Positions 3,570 through 23,510 of a DNA stretch of 64,000 nt are shown here, one piece after another. Origin of the DNA: a plasmid; the sequence record NZ_KX443406.1; one strand, given 5' to 3'. The notes beneath the pieces are model-generated. The model worked only from the letters and a program-made list of their open reading frames with translations, did no database searches and was not told the DNA's origin. Both the position numbers and the translations under genes were made by a program. The number at the start of each line of letters is the position of its first letter. Within the stretch, counting starts at the first letter, position 1.

Positions 3570-4142
3570 CTACTGCGTCGACCACAGGTCGGGCAGTCGG
3601 TCCTGGATCGCCGTGACGATGCCGATGCCGGCAGCGATCACGTCCGCGGGAACCTGGATGGCGGCTCCCTTGGTCTGGATGGGCACGCCGTCGATCGCGC
3701 GCCAGGTGGGCAGGCTCGACCGGGCGGCCGAGCCGAGGAATCGGTGCCAACCGATCGACCAGTTGTCGTGCACCGCGCCAGCGACGATGGAGCGCCGCTG
3801 GCGAACGTCCTTCGGGACCGCGCCCGCTGTGTTCGCGATCGTGACCAGGCCGAGGAGTTCGGTCTGCAGGCCCCGGTTTCGGTGTTCGAGGATCAGATCG
3901 TGCGCGCTGGCGAGTCCTTCGATGGTTTCCCGGCACACCACGACGACGTACGGGGATTCGCGTTCGCGGTCGGTGCCGCACGGCCATTGCTGGCGGGCAT
4001 CACCTGCGAAGTCCCAGTAGTGCGCGAGCGTCGAGACACCGGCGCCGCCGTGCGCGCCGACAAGCCACACAGCGGGCGACGGACGAACGCCGTCCATCGG
4101 TTCCGATCGGACGTCGAGAGTGATCGAGTCACGTTGGCTCAT
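3570..4142 (-). CDS. MinD/ParA-like (SIMIBI-fold) protein with degenerate Walker A, no Lys (VGAHGGAGVSTLA); probable pseudo-ATPase
   Basis: ORF 3570..4220 trimmed to MSQRDS..., whose ATG overlaps the upstream stop as ATGA. The P-loop-like segment lacks the conserved lysine. Confidence 0.45.
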   Translation of the reverse strand: MSQRDSITLDVRSEPMDGVRPSPAVWLVGAHGGAGVSTLAHYWDFAGDARQQWPCGTDRERESPYVVVVCRETIEGLASAHDLILEHRNRGLQTELLGLVTIANTAGAVPKDVRQRRSIVAGAVHDNWSIGWHRFLGSAARSSLPTWRAIDGVPIQTKGAAIQVPADVIAAGIGIVTAIQDRLPDLWSTQ

Positions 4143-4906
4143 GCCAGCTCTCCTGTCGTGTCGGCGTTGTGGTCTTGGACGGCAGTCAACTGTCCGAGCG
4201 CGTCGAGGGCGTCGGTCCACGCGTCGAGAGCTCCGCTCGACAGGCGCCGGTGGTCGAGGCGTCCCGGCAGCGCGAGCGCAGCGTCGAACGGGACCTCGAC
4301 GAACCCGGCGGTGCGGGGCGCGAGTGCGTCCCGGATCGGCGCGAGGTCGATCAGGGTCTCCGGCATCTGGTGGGAGATGGTCACGATCGTGCGTGCCAGG
4401 GTGTCGGCGCCGTAGGTCTTCATCAGCCAGCCGAGGGCATCGCGCATTCGACTCAGCGGCTCGGACCGCGCCGGGGCCACGATCACGATCCCTGCCCCGG
4501 CTTCGATGAGCGGGCCGAGGCGACGCGAGCGCAACGCCGGACCGACGTCGTGGAAGCGAGCCAGGCTGCGGTCTGCGAGTAGACCGTCGACGAGGGCCGG
4601 GTCGGTGGTGTCGCCGTGCCCGACGACGACCACACCTGCGCTGCTGACGGCCATGCGGGATCCGAGCTGGCGAATCGCGCGGGCACTGTCGATGGCGTCG
4701 ATGCCGGTGCGTTCGAGCAGGTTCCCGCCGTCGGAGGTTCCGTCGATCGCGGCGACGTCCGAACCCGTGCCGAGCCGCAGTGCGGTCGCCAACCCGTAGG
4801 TCGTTGTGGTCGACGCGGCTCCACCGGAGCCGGCAACGACGATGGCCGACACCTGCTCCGGATCCGTCACCTTCGGTGTCCTGCGCAGGGGGTAAACGTT
4901 CGTCAT
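4139..4906 (-). CDS. MinD/ParA-like protein with degenerate Walker A (AGSGGAASTTTT, no Lys); second tandem pseudo-ATPase
   Basis: VVAGSGGAASTTTTYGLATAL resembles a KGGxGKTT deviant Walker A but has no lysine. Adjacent paralog-like gene. Confidence 0.45.
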   Translation of the reverse strand: MTNVYPLRRTPKVTDPEQVSAIVVAGSGGAASTTTTYGLATALRLGTGSDVAAIDGTSDGGNLLERTGIDAIDSARAIRQLGSRMAVSSAGVVVVGHGDTTDPALVDGLLADRSLARFHDVGPALRSRRLGPLIEAGAGIVIVAPARSEPLSRMRDALGWLMKTYGADTLARTIVTISHQMPETLIDLAPIRDALAPRTAGFVEVPFDAALALPGRLDHRRLSSGALDAWTDALDALGQLTAVQDHNADTTGELA

Positions 4907-19658: not shown

Positions 19659-20228
19659 ATGCAGGACGTCGAGCACGACGAGACGAACGCGTTCGTCGAC
19701 GAGCCGACCGACGACCCGGGCAGCGAGTACACCGAGCCCGAACTCGACCCCAAGGCTCACATGCTCTGCGCCGCCGTGTGGACCCGAGACGACACCACCT
19801 TGAGGTTCGTCGTCGAGCGGATGACCGAGGCCGACTTCGCGAACCCCTTCCACCGCCCTGTTTTCGCGGCGATCCGGGATGCGGTGCTGGCCGGCCACCC
19901 GCACGACCCGGCTAGCGTCAGCATGGCGCTCGGTCGCGCAGGCAGCCAGGCCGTACCGGCCGCCGTCCACAACCACTTCCGCGCGGCGCTCACCCTGGGG
20001 TCGTCCGCGGGCGCGCTGCGCTACTACGCCGCTGACGTCGTCGCTGTTGCGTACCGACGGAGCTTCCATGAGCTGGCGGCCACGATGGCGCACGCGGCAG
20101 CCGGGGCCGCGGAAGATCAACTGTTCCCGATCCTGGTCGACCTGGGCACCCGGCAGCGCAGCGAGATGAATCGACTCCGGTCCCTCCGCGACGACCCACT
20201 GCCCACGACGGCGACCGACCAGGCGTGA
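19659..20228 (+). CDS. DnaB helicase N-terminal-domain-only protein (189 aa)
   Basis: HMLCAAVWTRDDTTLRFVVERMTEADFANPFHRPVFAAIRDAVLAGHPHDPASVSMALGR...GALRYYAADVVAVAYRRSFHEL matches the DnaB N-terminal domain pattern. SD GAGGGGGAGAG. Confidence 0.5.
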   Translation: MQDVEHDETNAFVDEPTDDPGSEYTEPELDPKAHMLCAAVWTRDDTTLRFVVERMTEADFANPFHRPVFAAIRDAVLAGHPHDPASVSMALGRAGSQAVPAAVHNHFRAALTLGSSAGALRYYAADVVAVAYRRSFHELAATMAHAAAGAAEDQLFPILVDLGTRQRSEMNRLRSLRDDPLPTTATDQA

Positions 20229-20274
20229 CGCGGGGTCCAGGCTGCAATATTCCCGTTCGCAATAGGATGGGCGC

Positions 20275-20859
20275 ATGATGATCGGATACGCGCGGGCCGA
20301 GGAAGGCCACGACGAGGACCAGCAACGCTCGTCGCTCGTCGCGCTGGGAGTCCAGCCCGATCACATCCATATCGACCGCGGTCTACGCGGGACCAGGAAC
20401 GACCTGCCCGCCCGCACGGCCATGCTCGCACGCCTCACCGCCGGCGACGTCATCGCGGTCACCGGACTCGAGCGACTGGCCCGCTCCGCTGCCGAGCTGG
20501 GCGAAGTCGCTGGCGTGATCGAGCAGCGCGGCGCATCACTTCGCGTCGGATCGACCGTTTACGACCCGGACACCGAGACCGGCCGCACCGCGTTCGCCAT
20601 GCTCACCCAGACCTTCCCCGACTTCCAAGCCGGAATCTTCCAACTTCGGCTGTCCGGGCCGCGCGCGAAAGCCAAAGCTGCAGGACGGTATCCGGGCGGC
20701 AAGGCGAAGCTCACACCAGAGCAGAGCCGTGCAATGTTCGAGCAGTACCAGTCCGGCGAGAAGACAGTCGCCGACCTGCAGAAGGAACACGGGCTGAGCA
20801 AGTCCGGTGTGTACGTGTACCTGCGGCAGGAACGCGACGCCCGCAACAACACTGCCTAG
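20275..20859 (+). CDS. Serine-recombinase (resolvase/invertase) family protein with Glu at the expected catalytic Ser position; C-terminal HTH
   Basis: MMIGYARAEEG...DQQRSSL...GDVIAVTGLERLARS matches the resolvase N-terminal fold, but YARVS(T) reads YARAE(E). C-terminal TVADLQKEHGLSKSGVYVYL HTH. Confidence 0.55.
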   Translation: MMIGYARAEEGHDEDQQRSSLVALGVQPDHIHIDRGLRGTRNDLPARTAMLARLTAGDVIAVTGLERLARSAAELGEVAGVIEQRGASLRVGSTVYDPDTETGRTAFAMLTQTFPDFQAGIFQLRLSGPRAKAKAAGRYPGGKAKLTPEQSRAMFEQYQSGEKTVADLQKEHGLSKSGVYVYLRQERDARNNTA

Positions 20860-21042
20860 ACCACGCAATCGGAATTGCCCTCGCTCCTGCCGATACCTGT
20901 TCGGGCCGCACCTCGACTGAGCCGGAGATTGCCGCTGGGTATCAAAGGAGACGAACGTGCCCTACCCCCAGTGGGTGGTGGCGGACGATGGACTCGCCCC
21001 CGACGCAAACCCAGGCAGAGCACGCCCACTGAGGAGGCTGCG

Positions 21043-21126
21043 ATGTTCGATCTTCCGTTCTGGGGGCCGCTCACGCCCGTGGTGATCGCAGTGGCCAACG
21101 CGCTCGACTGGCTGGGGGTGTGGTGA
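21043..21126 (+). CDS. Tiny ORF 1 of array (27 aa, MFDLPFWGPLTPVVIAVANALDWLGVW)
   Basis: SD GAGGAGG is 5 nt upstream. Hydrophobic and aromatic-rich. Confidence 0.3.
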   Translation: MFDLPFWGPLTPVVIAVANALDWLGVW

Positions 21127-21212
21127 TGGCACCGCTCGGCGGCGTCCTCGTCCCGGAGTGGCTGTACGACGTGCTCTACCAACTCTGGCTATGGGGCATT
21201 CCGCCGCACTAG
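21126..21212 (+). CDS. Tiny ORF 2 of array (28 aa, MAPLGGVLVPEWLYDVLYQLWLWGIPPH)
   Basis: ATG overlaps the stop of ORF 1 (TGATG). Trp/Tyr-rich. Confidence 0.3.
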   Translation: MAPLGGVLVPEWLYDVLYQLWLWGIPPH

Positions 21213-21226
21213 CAGGAGAGAAGCTC

Positions 21227-21331
21227 ATGGGTGACACGTTCTGGTTTCTGCCGTTGCCATTCGAGACGCTCCGATGGCTGGCTGCGACGTACCCATGCCT
21301 GGTCGACTTCCGCCAGGCGTGTGGGCGATAA
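21227..21331 (+). CDS. Tiny ORF 3 of array (34 aa, MGDTFWFLPLPFETLRWLAATYPCLVDFRQACGR)
   Basis: SD AGGAGAG is 6 nt upstream. Confidence 0.3.
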   Translation: MGDTFWFLPLPFETLRWLAATYPCLVDFRQACGR

Positions 21332-21341
21332 GGAGACGGTC

Positions 21342-21449
21342 ATGCTCGACTACGGATTCTTCGGCCGCACCCTCGGCCCTCTCGGCGAGGCGATGGACAT
21401 TGTCATCTACTGGATCGCCACAGGCGTGCGGCTGATGCCGCACGCATAG
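21342..21449 (+). CDS. Tiny ORF 4 of array (35 aa, MLDYGFFGRTLGPLGEAMDIVIYWIATGVRLMPHA)
   Basis: SD AAGGAGA is 6 nt upstream. Confidence 0.3.
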   Translation: MLDYGFFGRTLGPLGEAMDIVIYWIATGVRLMPHA

Positions 21450-21793
21450 CGCGCGAATCACCGAGGCCCTTCTCGACAATTTCCCCGGGGTGCGTTGCAC
21501 CGTTGTGCGCCTGTGGCGCACCCCGAAACGAGCTCCGCTGCGCTCCGCCCCTGGAAAAGACTTCTTCCTTTTTCCCTTCTGGCTTCCGATTTTGACCGGC
21601 GGTGACCTCCGCGCAACCCCTTGGCGCTGCGCGGCCTGACGGCTCCGAAAATTCTCTCCCCCGCTGCGCTCCTCCAAGATTTTTCGACCCCAGGGGTTGC
21701 ACTCCGGCCCCCTCATACCGGTCCAAATACTCCATGCCAGAAGGGCAAAAGAACGGGCGGGGGAGAGACCCGTCCCCGAGTGAGGAGGGCGTC

Positions 21794-21877
21794 ATGCGTC
21801 GCGTTGAGGCGGAAGTCGATTCGAAGGACGAGATCGCCGAGATCGTCGAGTTGCTCGACGGAAACCCCTGGAACTAG
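21794..21877 (+). CDS. Tiny acidic ORF (27 aa, MRRVEAEVDSKDEIAEIVELLDGNPWN)
   Basis: SD GAGGAGGG upstream. Followed by a hairpin at 21899-21929. Confidence 0.3.
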   Translation: MRRVEAEVDSKDEIAEIVELLDGNPWN

Positions 21878-21898
21878 ATCAGCGCCCGAGAAATGAGT

Positions 21899-21929
21899 GA
21901 GTCGGGACAGAAGGTAGCTGCCCCGACTC
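21899..21929. terminator. Hairpin GAGTCGGG-N15-CCCCGACTC
   Basis: Inverted repeat between the tiny ORF and the SD (AGGAGAGAGG) of the ParB-like gene. Confidence 0.3.
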
Positions 21930-21959
21930 GCTCTCCCGAACTGTAGGAGAGAGGCCATC

Positions 21960-23510
21960 ATGACCGCAACGACCACCCCCGAACTGCTCACCGTCGATCC
22001 CGCCACCCTCGAGATCGGTGACAACGTCCGCGACGAGGTCGACCTCGACGCGACACCCGAGTTCGTCGAGTCCATCGCAGAACACGGTGTGCTGCACCCG
22101 ATCCTGGCAGAGCGCCGGAATGACGGCACCATCTTGGTCACCGATGGCCAGCGCCGACTTCTCGCCGCCCGCGTCGCGAACCGGACCAGCGTGCCCGTCA
22201 TCATCCGGCCCCAGGGGAATGGAACCGACAACGCTCGCAAGGCCGCTCGCATCGGCCAGCAGATCGTCTCCAATGACCAGCGCGAAGCCCTCACCGATGG
22301 CCAGCGCGCCGCCGGCATCGCCGCCATGCTCGACCTGGTCCTGTCCCAGACCGCCGTCGCCAAGGCAGCCAGCGTCTCCCGCGACAGGGTCAAGACCCTC
22401 GCGACGGTCGGCGCATCGAAGGCCGCTCGCGCCAGCGTGGACGAGCATCAGTTCACCATCGAACAGGCCGCGACCATCGCCGAGTTCGAGGAAGCCGGCG
22501 ACACCGAGGGCATCAACCGCCTGCTCTCCTCTGGCAGCCACTACCAGTTCGACTACATGGCCGAGCGTCTGCGTTGTGACCGGGCGGAACGCATCGCACA
22601 CGCCGAGGCAGCCGCGCCGTACGAGGCCAAGGGCTTCACCATCCTCGACGGCTACAACTACCACCCGGTCACGTTCGAGCACGTCCTCACCGAGACCGGC
22701 GAACCGATCACCCTCGAGACGGTCGAAGCTGACGCCTCCCGCTGGGGCGTCCGGCTGAGCTGGACCGAGGCGTGGTTCGACCGCCAGAGCGGGGCAGAGG
22801 TCGCCGAGGACGAAATCGACTGGGACACCCACGAGAACCCCGACCTCGAAGCCGAGGACGGCCTGATCCACATGAACAACATCGAGACCCGCCGCGTGTG
22901 GGACCGCGAGTTCCACCTGCTCGACCCCGGCAACCTCGAGGGCAGCGGCCTCCAGCTGAGCGATGTCGCCAAGGTCATGGTCGCGCGCAGGACCGGACGC
23001 GCTGCCGCAGTGCCGGCGACCGCCGAAGAAGCAGCCGCCCAGATCGAGGCGGAGCGCGAGGAACGCCGCCGCGTCCGAGAGCTGAATAAGCGCGCCGAGG
23101 CGGCGAACACCGTCCGACGCACCTTCCTGCGTACCCTGCTCGGACGCACCAAGCTCCCCGCGAACGCCTCCGTGTGGATCGCGGTCACCCTCGCGAGCGA
23201 TCCTCACCTGCTGGCCGAGTACCACGCGAGCGACTGCTTCGGAGAGCTACTCGGGATCAAGGACTACCGACTCTCGAACAACGCCGTCCGGGACCTGGCC
23301 GTCGCAGCCAGCGACGCCCGCGCCCAGGTCATCACCTTCGCCCTGGTGATCGCCGCGATGGAGGCCCGCATGGTCAAGGACGCCTGGCGGACCCGGCCCC
23401 GAGGCGCAACCGCCTACCTCGAACTCCTCGCCGCGAACGGCTACGAACTGTCGGACGTCGAGAAGGCGATCGCCGCGCACATCAAGCCCGAGACCATCAG
23501 CCTCGACTAG
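21960..23510 (+). CDS. ParB/Srx N-terminal-domain protein (516 aa)
   Basis: GVLHPILAERRNDGTILVTDGQRRLLAARVANRTSVPVII matches the ParB N-terminal (nuclease/CTPase-fold) motif region. Long acidic middle. C-terminal helical domain. Confidence 0.6.
   Translation: MTATTTPELLTVDPATLEIGDNVRDEVDLDATPEFVESIAEHGVLHPILAERRNDGTILVTDGQRRLLAARVANRTSVPVIIRPQGNGTDNARKAARIGQQIVSNDQREALTDGQRAAGIAAMLDLVLSQTAVAKAASVSRDRVKTLATVGASKAARASVDEHQFTIEQAATIAEFEEAGDTEGINRLLSSGSHYQFDYMAERLRCDRAERIAHAEAAAPYEAKGFTILDGYNYHPVTFEHVLTETGEPITLETVEADASRWGVRLSWTEAWFDRQSGAEVAEDEIDWDTHENPDLEAEDGLIHMNNIETRRVWDREFHLLDPGNLEGSGLQLSDVAKVMVARRTGRAAAVPATAEEAAAQIEAEREERRRVRELNKRAEAANTVRRTFLRTLLGRTKLPANASVWIAVTLASDPHLLAEYHASDCFGELLGIKDYRLSNNAVRDLAVAASDARAQVITFALVIAAMEARMVKDAWRTRPRGATAYLELLAANGYELSDVEKAIAAHIKPETISLD

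Follow-up and report, generated by a model that had tools for sequence, protein, structure and literature searches.

The DNA analysed here, in the following called the window, is a stretch of 64,000 nucleotides (nt) from a plasmid (NZ_KX443406.1) whose replicon has a G+C content of 64%. Positions 20200-22000 of the window are 99.9% identical to pVAPB1593 (NC_011150.1), a porcine-type virulence plasmid of Prescottella (Rhodococcus) equi. This segment contains a 1.1-kb spacer between a serine recombinase (resolvase) gene (20275-20859, plus strand) and a parB-like gene (21960-23510, plus strand), the latter encoding 516 amino acids (aa) with a ParB N-terminal domain. A reading of the nucleotide sequence made without database searches, here called the sequence-only reading, had placed four consecutive micro-open reading frames (micro-ORFs) in the spacer, which we name o1 to o4. 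All four were reproduced from the sequence with the proposed coordinates and peptides, including the TGATG overlap of o1 and o2.

The four genes are encoded on the plus strand. o1 (21043-21126) has 27 codons (MFDLPFWGPLTPVVIAVANALDWLGVW) and is preceded by the Shine-Dalgarno (SD) sequence GAGGAGG at 21031-21037. o3 (21227-21331; 34 codons; MGDTFWFLPLPFETLRWLAATYPCLVDFRQACGR) follows the SD sequence AGGAGAG at 21214-21220 and has two Cys residues near its C-terminus, and o4 (21342-21449; 35 codons; MLDYGFFGRTLGPLGEAMDIVIYWIATGVRLMPHA) follows the SD sequence AAGGAGA at 21330-21336, which overlaps the stop codon of o3. In these three genes the distance between SD and ATG is 5-6 nt. o2 (21126-21212; 28 codons; MAPLGGVLVPEWLYDVLYQLWLWGIPPH) has no canonical SD of its own, and its start shares one base with the stop of o1 at the junction GTGGTGATGG (TGATG). 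A one-base stop/start overlap is the usual arrangement for translational coupling. From this overlap and the absence of its own SD we infer that o2 is translationally coupled to o1. The proposal that each micro-ORF has a strong SD therefore holds for o1, o3 and o4, but not for o2, which has a coupled start instead.

The RefSeq annotation of NC_011150.1 shows only two small hypothetical proteins in the 1.1-kb spacer. One of them corresponds to o4, called as a 42-aa protein from a GTG at 21321 (WP_257792819.1), and the other is a 47-aa ORF at 21734-21877. o1, o2 and o3 are unannotated in all records examined, as the sequence-only reading had assumed for the whole array; for o4 this assumption was incorrect.

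We consider it nearly certain that o1-o4 are real small-protein genes which gene finders have overlooked, a proposal supported by codon-position composition, conservation and substitution pattern. The G+C contents at first, second and third codon positions (GC1/2/3) are 0.64/0.46/0.86 for o1, 0.72/0.38/0.86 for o2, 0.57/0.51/0.74 for o3 and 0.61/0.42/0.86 for o4, the same gradient as in the reference genes for the resolvase (0.71/0.48/0.81) and ParB (0.70/0.47/0.88). Requiring an ATG start, a length of 25 codons or more and a correctly spaced SD core, we counted four ORFs in the 1.1-kb spacer (o1, o3, o4 and a 27-aa ORF at 21794), with o2 left out for lack of an SD core. The same count in 2000 dinucleotide-preserving shuffles had a mean of 0.22 and a maximum of 3.

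In the diverged copies of the genes described below, frame and stop are retained, and copies with an SD of their own keep its core at the same spacing while the flanking bases vary. The start codon is retained in every copy except the o1/o6 hybrid of pVAPA plasmids (CTG). This retention extends over copies that differ by 10-40% at synonymous sites and come from plasmids, a phage and contigs of chromosomal or metagenomic origin. Loss of the frames or SD sites in relatives had been named as the observation that would speak against the genes; we found both to be kept. Counting of substitutions according to Nei and Gojobori, pooled over five diverged pairs covering o1, o3, o4 and the o5 type of other arrays, gave 51.5 synonymous versus 10.5 non-synonymous differences in the proposed frame, with no stops (proportion of synonymous differences, pS, 0.47; of non-synonymous differences, pN, 0.03). 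The constraint looked for across relatives, a pN/pS of 0.06, appeared in this frame only. The other five frames had pN/pS values of 0.2-11.6, with stops in four of them, and the two shifted and two of the antisense frames reached 2.9-11.6.

Individual comparisons showed the same bias. For o1, the window and pVAPN1572 differ by 7 synonymous and 2 non-synonymous changes, and pVAPN1572 and the phage by 10 and 4. o4 of the window differs from that of pVAPN1572 by 7.5 synonymous and 2.5 non-synonymous changes. For o3, comparison with two metagenome copies yielded ratios of 14/1 (contig L020) and 14.5/2.5 (contig L019), with pS of about 0.6 and pN of 0.013-0.033. The C-terminal 21 codons of o2, compared between the window and L019, had a pS of 0.43 and a pN of 0.135 in frame, and this relation was reversed in the shifted frames. 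The peptides are under purifying selection.

These data bear on the possibility that the ORFs are regulatory upstream ORFs whose translation controls the parB-like operon, or chance ORFs in GC-rich DNA. Their location would suit a regulatory role: flanked by the resolvase and parB-like genes, they share the orientation of both and are followed by a conserved structured non-coding element. However, their amino-acid sequences are conserved with a pN/pS of about 0.06, the genes also occur without a following parB gene or hairpin element (in pVAPN1572, in pVAPN2012, in the phage and on the chromosomal contigs), and the number of ORFs with SD was never reached in the 2000 shuffles. Both explanations are extremely unlikely. 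A reading of the array as an RNA element was rejected as well, because the array region matched no Rfam family and its RNA is not unusually structured (fold z-score -1.08).

The sequence-only reading had also considered a 42-codon ORF upstream of o1. This ORF exists: it starts at GTG 20957 and extends to 21085, overlapping o1. It does not behave like a gene, with a flat GC1/2/3 (0.67/0.67/0.70) and a frame that is not retained in relatives; SGAir0479 and pVAPA have stubs of 21 and 24 codons in another frame relation. Its leader, GGTATC(A/G)AAGGAGACGA(A/T)CGTG, is common to the window and the metagenome contig L019, where the counterpart is an intact gene for a 41-aa class B peptide (VLNLQLWWWTMDWPPAWREGLRAITPCQLWGLATCPYDWPV; classes are defined below). 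The window counterpart carries a +1 nt frameshift and is truncated. Given an SD and GTG homologous to those of the intact L019 gene in combination with this damage, the upstream ORF is best regarded as a frameshifted, decayed fifth member of the array and not as a gene in its own right. We refer to it as the o0 remnant (20944-21032, plus strand), which comprises the SD AAAGGAGA at 20944-20951, the GTG at 20957 and the homology to the start of the L019 class B gene.

Pairwise scores compared with those of shuffled sequences, together with small hidden Markov models (HMMs), divide the four peptides into what appear by these comparisons to be three unrelated sequence classes: A (o1 and o4), B (o3) and C (o2). 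In class A, the motif M-x-D-x-x-F-[WF]-G-(x)-P-L precedes a hydrophobic helix, in most cases one with Trp. A direct profile comparison of o1 and o4 was only suggestive (E 0.005), and the two are linked via the intermediate MLDYFMFFGPLSPLYVAAITWLVSIGVL with z-scores of 6.4 to o1 and 4.6 to o4. Class B consists of o3 and the o5 type, which is absent from the window (MDFPPIWWLMPYGFVPDPIRYWVLENAPCWLGGYCP). Intermediates connect o3 with the o5 type (MDFPPIWWLMP...DNAPCWLGGYCP) at z-scores of 6.6 and 8.6 against shuffles. The N-terminal half of class B peptides is acidic and rich in Trp and Pro, and the C-terminal part carries P-C-x5-C (P-C-x7-C in o3). Class C is represented by o2, with the pattern VP-x-WLYDVL-x-QLWLWGIPP[HR] at its end and a homologue in L019 (VIGVVSVPPWLYDVLHQLWLWGIPPR). 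Both the N-terminal (M-x-D-aromatic) and the C-terminal (P-C-x5-C-type) motifs are conserved within classes. A single superfamily for all four peptides was rejected, as o1-o3, o2-o1, o2-o3 and o2-o4 scored no better than shuffles; only o1-o4 and o3-o5 could be linked, both solely through intermediates. A phage peptide, ph0, is a weak candidate for class A (HMM E 0.006-0.04 in a small database, pairwise z-scores 1.1-1.4).

Members of these three families were found nowhere but in tandem arrays, in which 2 to 9 tiny genes all point in one direction. In most arrays every gene either follows a strong ribosome-binding site of its own or overlaps the preceding stop by one base. The order o1-o2-o3-o4 (A-C-B-A) is found in pVAPB and in a plasmid of Rhodococcus sp. 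SGAir0479. pVAPN1572 carries o1-o2-o6-o5-o4 (A-C-A-B-A), and the 431-kb plasmid p1-WH99 has o1-o2-o6, in which Trp is replaced by Arg at several positions. The equine pVAPA plasmids (21 records) lack o2 and have an o1/o6 hybrid, in which ATG is changed to CTG, followed by o5 and o4. In linear pVAPN2012-type plasmids an o5-o4 pair lies 1.3 kb from one record end, and large plasmids of R. erythropolis and R. qingshengii carry a class B gene or two, in some cases together with a class A gene. Two genomic contigs were also identified, a 236-kb contig of P. defluvii with chromosomal-looking flanking genes and o1-o4 (A-A), and a 273-kb contig of P. equi AcN21-7 with a five-gene array. Rhodococcus phage Madraxi encodes ph0, o1 and an o4-like gene. 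Metagenome contigs contain up to nine genes in a row; in the largest array (Ga0131853_10035246, the contig L019 mentioned above; 800-1784) nine consecutive genes of classes A, B and C share a strand. The leader and SD in front of this array are those of window positions 20939-20959, and its genes include a 94%-identical o3 and the o2 homologue.

Intact o1 with ATG and SD core was found in pVAPN1572, p1-WH99, SGAir0479, Madraxi and P. defluvii. o2 homologues are present in pVAPN1572, p1-WH99, SGAir0479 and L019, and copies of o4 in pVAPA, pVAPN1572, pVAPN2012, SGAir0479, Madraxi, P. equi AcN21-7 and P. defluvii. All named hosts belong to Prescottella or Rhodococcus. A six-frame scan of the window and every relative locus with three HMMs detected members only in arrays and always on the array strand, and revealed no further copies within the 64-kb window.

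The SD of o1 marks the point from which the window is homologous to pVAPN1572, p1-WH99 and the phage, and recombination joints coincide with gene boundaries: the junction GGGGTGTGGTGATG is followed by o2 in the window and by o4 in P. defluvii and the phage. The contexts comprise all three types of R. equi virulence plasmids, large linear plasmids, a temperate phage and two chromosomal contigs. Depending on the context, the array is flanked by resolvase/ParB-like genes, phage tail genes or unrelated hypothetical proteins. An all-versus-all BLASTP of the flanking genes in plasmid and phage contexts revealed no conserved partner gene and linked only the close pair pVAPN1572/p1-WH99. Judged from these alignments, the arrays appear to shuffle and recombine at gene junctions in unrelated contexts on mobile DNA of Prescottella and Rhodococcus, and they very probably constitute an autonomous mobile cassette.

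The region between the resolvase gene and the array has acquired other DNA in some plasmids. In the SGAir0479 plasmid, a dihydrofolate reductase family gene is inserted there on the opposite strand (L007 2207-2758), which suggests that this spacer is an insertion hot spot. pVAPA1037 has, relative to pVAPB, an insertion of about 480 bp upstream of the array (L002, about 3697-4224) with a minus-strand gene for 92 aa; its ends carry a direct duplication of about 45 bp (ctgctcgggcaggcg.ctcg.c.gtgccggagattgccgctggg).

Phage Madraxi (PP978820.1) is temperate and encodes a serine integrase and an immunity repressor. Its o1 copy has 85% amino-acid identity to the window peptide and is coupled to the o4-like gene by the same one-base overlap; ph0 is located upstream of o1, and a strong hairpin with a 14-bp stem downstream of the array. 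The related phage Jflix2 contains only ph0, an unannotated 30-codon gene (L014 2647-2739, MTEWLNNPIGAAAYAVLAFFSLLGGLSGFW) in a 136-bp gap on the strand opposite to its neighbours. Because Jflix2 has ph0 alone, the o1 gene, the o4-like gene, the hairpin and gene 3 of Madraxi form a 1.08-kb insertion. Accessory 'morons' of temperate phages classically have this layout, a block in reverse orientation with a strong hairpin behind it. Gene 3 itself (L003 2761-3552) is annotated as 'minor tail protein', and its product begins like a signal peptide and contains GDSGGP, a motif typical of S1 serine proteases.

The micro-genes of Madraxi are antisense to its annotated gene 4 (L003 2317-2730, XEN16909.1, 137 aa). 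Gene 4 has a GC1/2/3 of 0.70/0.59/0.64, compared with 0.58/0.55/0.92 in its neighbours, and starts inside the strong hairpin. As this GC pattern is non-coding and the product is rich in Arg, Pro and Ser, gene 4 is, on the composition of the sequence, apparently an antisense annotation artefact. Together with the minus-strand coding sequence in pVAPA it had raised the possibility that the true gene lies antisense to the array. This was rejected, since antisense ORFs lack a coding GC pattern; in the window, the overlapping minus-strand ORFs have a flat GC1/2/3. The antisense frame that shares third codon positions with the micro-genes has a pN/pS of 0.20 but six in-frame stops, which fall in o3, o4 and o5, and in o1 its ratio of synonymous to non-synonymous changes is worse. 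The minus-strand coding sequence of pVAPA lends no support either, as it sits in the unrelated insertion upstream of the array.

Searches of Pfam, NCBIfam, PHROGs and PADLOC with the four window peptides gave no meaningful match; the only hits below E 1 were sub-threshold PHROG matches of o2 (E 0.46) and of the phage peptide ph0 (E 0.075). PDB sequences contained no match to o4 at E values up to 10. A concatenated 216-aa query against a word index of 5.8 billion proteins detected nothing at E values up to 0.01, which we attribute to gene calling and not to true absence. An exhaustive HMMER search with o4 in 1.84 billion cluster representatives found three true relatives (35, 55 and 36 aa). Two further matches of this search, the 911-aa low-complexity repeat protein P0002 and the 351-aa secreted repeat protein P0003, were judged compositional or convergent because summing over many repeats inflates the score, and neither was used as evidence. 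P0003 has five ...LLKVLGPLG[DE]A[IV]D... repeats with KR-type dibasic sites between them and resembles a Kex2-processed repeat protein; the repeats match the o4 segment LGPLGEAMD with E 2.5e-7 summed over repeats.

IMG/VR scans with profiles of class A (o4 and o1), ph0 and class B gave no confirmed matches. In GTDB species representatives, a search for o4 with narrow patterns identified two Prescottella loci, and the true range may be wider. JGI metagenomes yielded five contigs with 59-66% G+C. Our literature searches found no description of these ORFs in comparative plasmid papers. Tandem small-peptide operons on mobile elements are already known; the array is a previously undescribed family set of micro-protein genes.

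The peptides are hydrophobic and rich in aromatic residues, as the sequence-only reading had noticed. Trp, Phe and Tyr account for 17.7% of their 124 residues (14-25% per peptide) compared with 6.0% in four neighbouring annotated genes, and Trp for 7.3% compared with 1.1%. The four peptides contain no Lys, and their net charges are -2, -2, 0 and -1 for o1 to o4. They share an Asp at position 2-5, an aromatic cluster, a Gly/Pro kink and then a hydrophobic or amphipathic helix of 18-20 residues; an Arg near the C-terminus is found in o3, o4 and most class B members. On inspection of the peptides, no double-glycine or signal-peptide-like leader was visible. The Wimley-White octanol free energy of the best 19-residue window is below zero for all peptides except o4, the interface scale gives -0.9 to -7.2 kcal/mol, and the maximum hydrophobic moment is 0.16-0.44. 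Single-sequence AlphaFold2 models predicted an extended N-terminus and helices at residues 12-21 and 23-33 for o3 (predicted local distance difference test score, pLDDT, 82) and a helix-kink-helix for o4, with helices at 4-11 and 13-31 (pLDDT 81).

Small membrane proteins, type I-toxin-like peptides and a peptide precursor set had been offered as possible products. The first of these is the best supported by composition and predicted helices, and the peptides are probably membrane-associated. Type I toxins such as Hok, Fst, Ibs, Ldr and TisB are hydrophobic peptides of 20-50 aa that act at the cytoplasmic membrane; their genes lie on plasmids and prophages, frequently escape annotation and in some cases form repeated loci. 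Peptides of this kind would stabilise a plasmid or prophage by post-segregational killing, depolarising the membrane unless an unstable antisense RNA represses them. The small size and hydrophobicity of the array peptides would fit, with best 19-residue octanol free energies below zero for o1-o3, and so would carriage by plasmids and a prophage and the position between a gene for multimer resolution (the resolvase) and a parB-like gene. The regulation of the array looks different. Type I systems have one toxin per module, an antisense RNA antitoxin and tightly repressed translation, whereas the arrays consist of 2-9 coupled, SD-driven genes, and four to nine different peptides per locus are unlike known systems. 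The SD sites are strong and exposed and the starts coupled rather than sequestered, in an mRNA with a fold z-score of -1.08. Intergenic gaps of only 10-14 nt leave no room for a separate antitoxin locus, and a signal scan of the opposite strand found no promoter or terminator signals for an antisense RNA. With pS values of 0.35-0.6, synonymous sites diverge freely, which argues against a conserved overlapping antisense RNA. The peptides also lack the usual charged C-terminal tail. A function as type I toxins is distinctly unlikely.

A precursor set would imply ribosomally synthesised and post-translationally modified peptides (RiPPs), with a conserved N-terminal leader and a C-terminal core containing Cys or Trp. 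The genes are tandem, paralogous and precursor-like, and the P-C-x5-C of class B (P-C-x7-C in o3) as well as the many Trp and Pro residues are typical cross-linking substrates. But purifying selection appears to act over the whole peptide length, with no evident leader/core pattern. Wherever neighbouring genes were annotated or predicted, none that codes for a modifying enzyme, a protease or a transporter adjoins the array or recurs between contexts. A precursor set, for which no conserved modification or export gene lies nearby, is highly unlikely.

The layout of the array also recalls secreted membrane-active peptides. The PSM-alpha operon, which encodes phenol-soluble modulins (PSMs), consists of four tandem micro-genes with their own ribosome-binding sites and was long missed by annotation. 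Its products in S. aureus are membrane-acting helical peptides of about 20 residues without a signal sequence (PMC12623860); the layout is like that of the array. Aureocin A70 (aurABCD), garvicin KS and the cereucins are encoded by three to four tandem leaderless genes of about 30 codons on mobile plasmids, often unannotated, and aureocin A70-type peptides are hydrophobic with functionally important Trp residues, in likeness to the array peptides (PMC6131525). o1-o4 might by analogy form a leaderless multi-peptide bacteriocin or PSM-like set, exported as made, that damages the membranes of competitors or host cells. The array shares with these loci the design of a tandem operon that lies on a mobile plasmid, escaped annotation and encodes three to four leaderless peptides of about 30 aa; Trp-rich membrane-active peptides are typical of the leaderless type (PMC6131525), the interfacial hydrophobicity is strongly favourable (-0.9 to -7.2 kcal/mol), and the arrays are polymorphic and shuffled like bacteriocin loci.

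Charge and genetic context point in the other direction. Leaderless bacteriocins are strongly cationic, with net charges of +4 to +7 and isoelectric points of about 10.7-11 (PMC6131525), whereas the array peptides range from -2 to 0 and have no Lys. The aureocin A70 type (+4/+5) consists of mutually homologous peptides with dedicated ABC-transporter and immunity genes; the array encodes three unrelated classes, and in none of the contexts with annotated or predicted neighbours that we examined is an ABC exporter or immunity gene adjacent. The array peptides have no sequence similarity to aureocin A70-type bacteriocins and no match to the bacteriocin models of Pfam and NCBIfam. PSMs depend on PmtCD for export and self-protection (PMC12623860), and there is no Pmt-like gene near the array. 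PSMs are furthermore Agr-regulated, PmtCD-exported amphipathic helices of the chromosomal core genome, in contrast to the array peptides, which are Pro/Gly-kinked, far more aromatic and encoded on Rhodococcus plasmids and phage. Secreted peptides of this type are a fairly unlikely explanation.

On balance, we favour a set of micro-proteins that are embedded in the membrane and whose genes form an accessory cassette of mobile elements. The four genes would be expressed from one polycistronic message and the peptides made without signal peptide or leader. They would insert into the cytoplasmic membrane or lie on it with the N-terminus out and the C-terminus in; under the positive-inside rule, an acidic N-terminus and a basic C-terminus fit this orientation. 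Since the classes regularly co-occur, the small proteins of A, B and C probably function jointly. The cassette may then be a moron-type accessory module that alters the host envelope for the benefit of the element, for example by excluding or aborting rival phages or plasmids.

Exclusion genes of the 'moron' type are known from the tail regions of other phages, such as HK97 gp15 and phi80 cor. Lysogenically expressed membrane proteins of actinobacteriophages, for example Sbash gp30/gp31, mediate defence (PMC6426596). Like the array, the Sbash, HK97 and phi80 genes are accessory genes of temperate phages set apart from flanking structural genes; their membrane proteins are of benefit to the lysogen. 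They differ from the array in that each known example is one protein of 60-400 aa that has lipoprotein signals or several transmembrane segments and no homology to the array peptides. A role specifically in exclusion or defence is suggested by a self-contained cassette that is carried on competing elements and is reverse-oriented upstream of a hairpin in a temperate phage; we offer it tentatively, as a possibility that is more doubtful than membrane association. Still more speculative is a modular system made of micro-proteins only, in which sets of 2-9 members of the three families, exchanged between plasmids, phages and chromosomes of Rhodococcus and Prescottella, would assemble in the membrane and decide on the entry or replication of other mobile elements, through exclusion of phages or plasmids or through abortive infection.

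Several observations weigh against a membrane-embedded accessory cassette with such a role. The case for exclusion comes from context only, in that mobile elements carry the cassette and its position in one phage resembles that of a moron, and family and database searches found no homology to known exclusion, defence or membrane proteins. o4 and the class B peptides have Asp, Glu or many Pro residues within the hydrophobic stretch, so that a classical transmembrane helix is not assured. A sigma-70-type scan found no promoter for the array. The p1-WH99 copies show 0 synonymous versus 3 and 0 versus 4 non-synonymous changes; these copies and those of pVAPA, with their CTG start and o1/o6 hybrid, look as if they are decaying, which suggests that the function is dispensable in some hosts.

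The virulence plasmids of R. equi have been sequenced and compared many times, yet two to five conserved backbone genes were overlooked. Only one or two of the plasmid records examined annotate array genes, and these in part, while one phage record has a wrong-strand artefact; the micro-genes are nearly invisible to protein-level resources. If the modular exclusion system were true, the backbones of pVAPA, pVAPB and pVAPN would all carry it. A role in phage or plasmid exclusion or at the envelope would bear on virulence-plasmid ecology and on phage-based approaches against R. equi. The cassette is compact and genetically tractable, its peptides can be synthesised, and the host, the plasmids and a carrier phage are in culture, which makes it a good test system.

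Two further elements are located between o4 and the parB-like gene. The first is a long imperfect hairpin of about 190 nt at 21566-21752, with arm pairs such as CTTTTTCCCTTCTGG / CCAGAAGGGCAAAAG, ATTTTGACCGG / CCGGTCcAAAT and GCAACCCC / GGGGTTGC. It is 78-87% conserved in unannotated intergenic DNA of Rhodococcus plasmids that are otherwise unrelated (pRDE02 and R. fascians PBTS2), and does not accompany the micro-gene cassette elsewhere. RNAalifold predicted 77 pairs, mostly invariant and 7 of them with compensatory changes, and the hairpin has no Rfam match. It could be a single-stranded-DNA element (a single-strand initiation site, ssi, a single-strand promoter or an oriT-like element) or a non-coding RNA. 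The second is a fifth small ORF at 21794-21877, directly upstream of the parB-like gene, with a perfect GAGGAGG SD and a GC1/2/3 of 0.64/0.29/0.82. It encodes an acidic hydrophilic 27-aa peptide (MRRVEAEVDSKDEIAEIVELLDGNPWN), which is unrelated to the hydrophobic peptides and conserved in pVAPA and SGAir0479. The start of the 47-aa RefSeq protein (21734) is probably too far upstream for this ORF.

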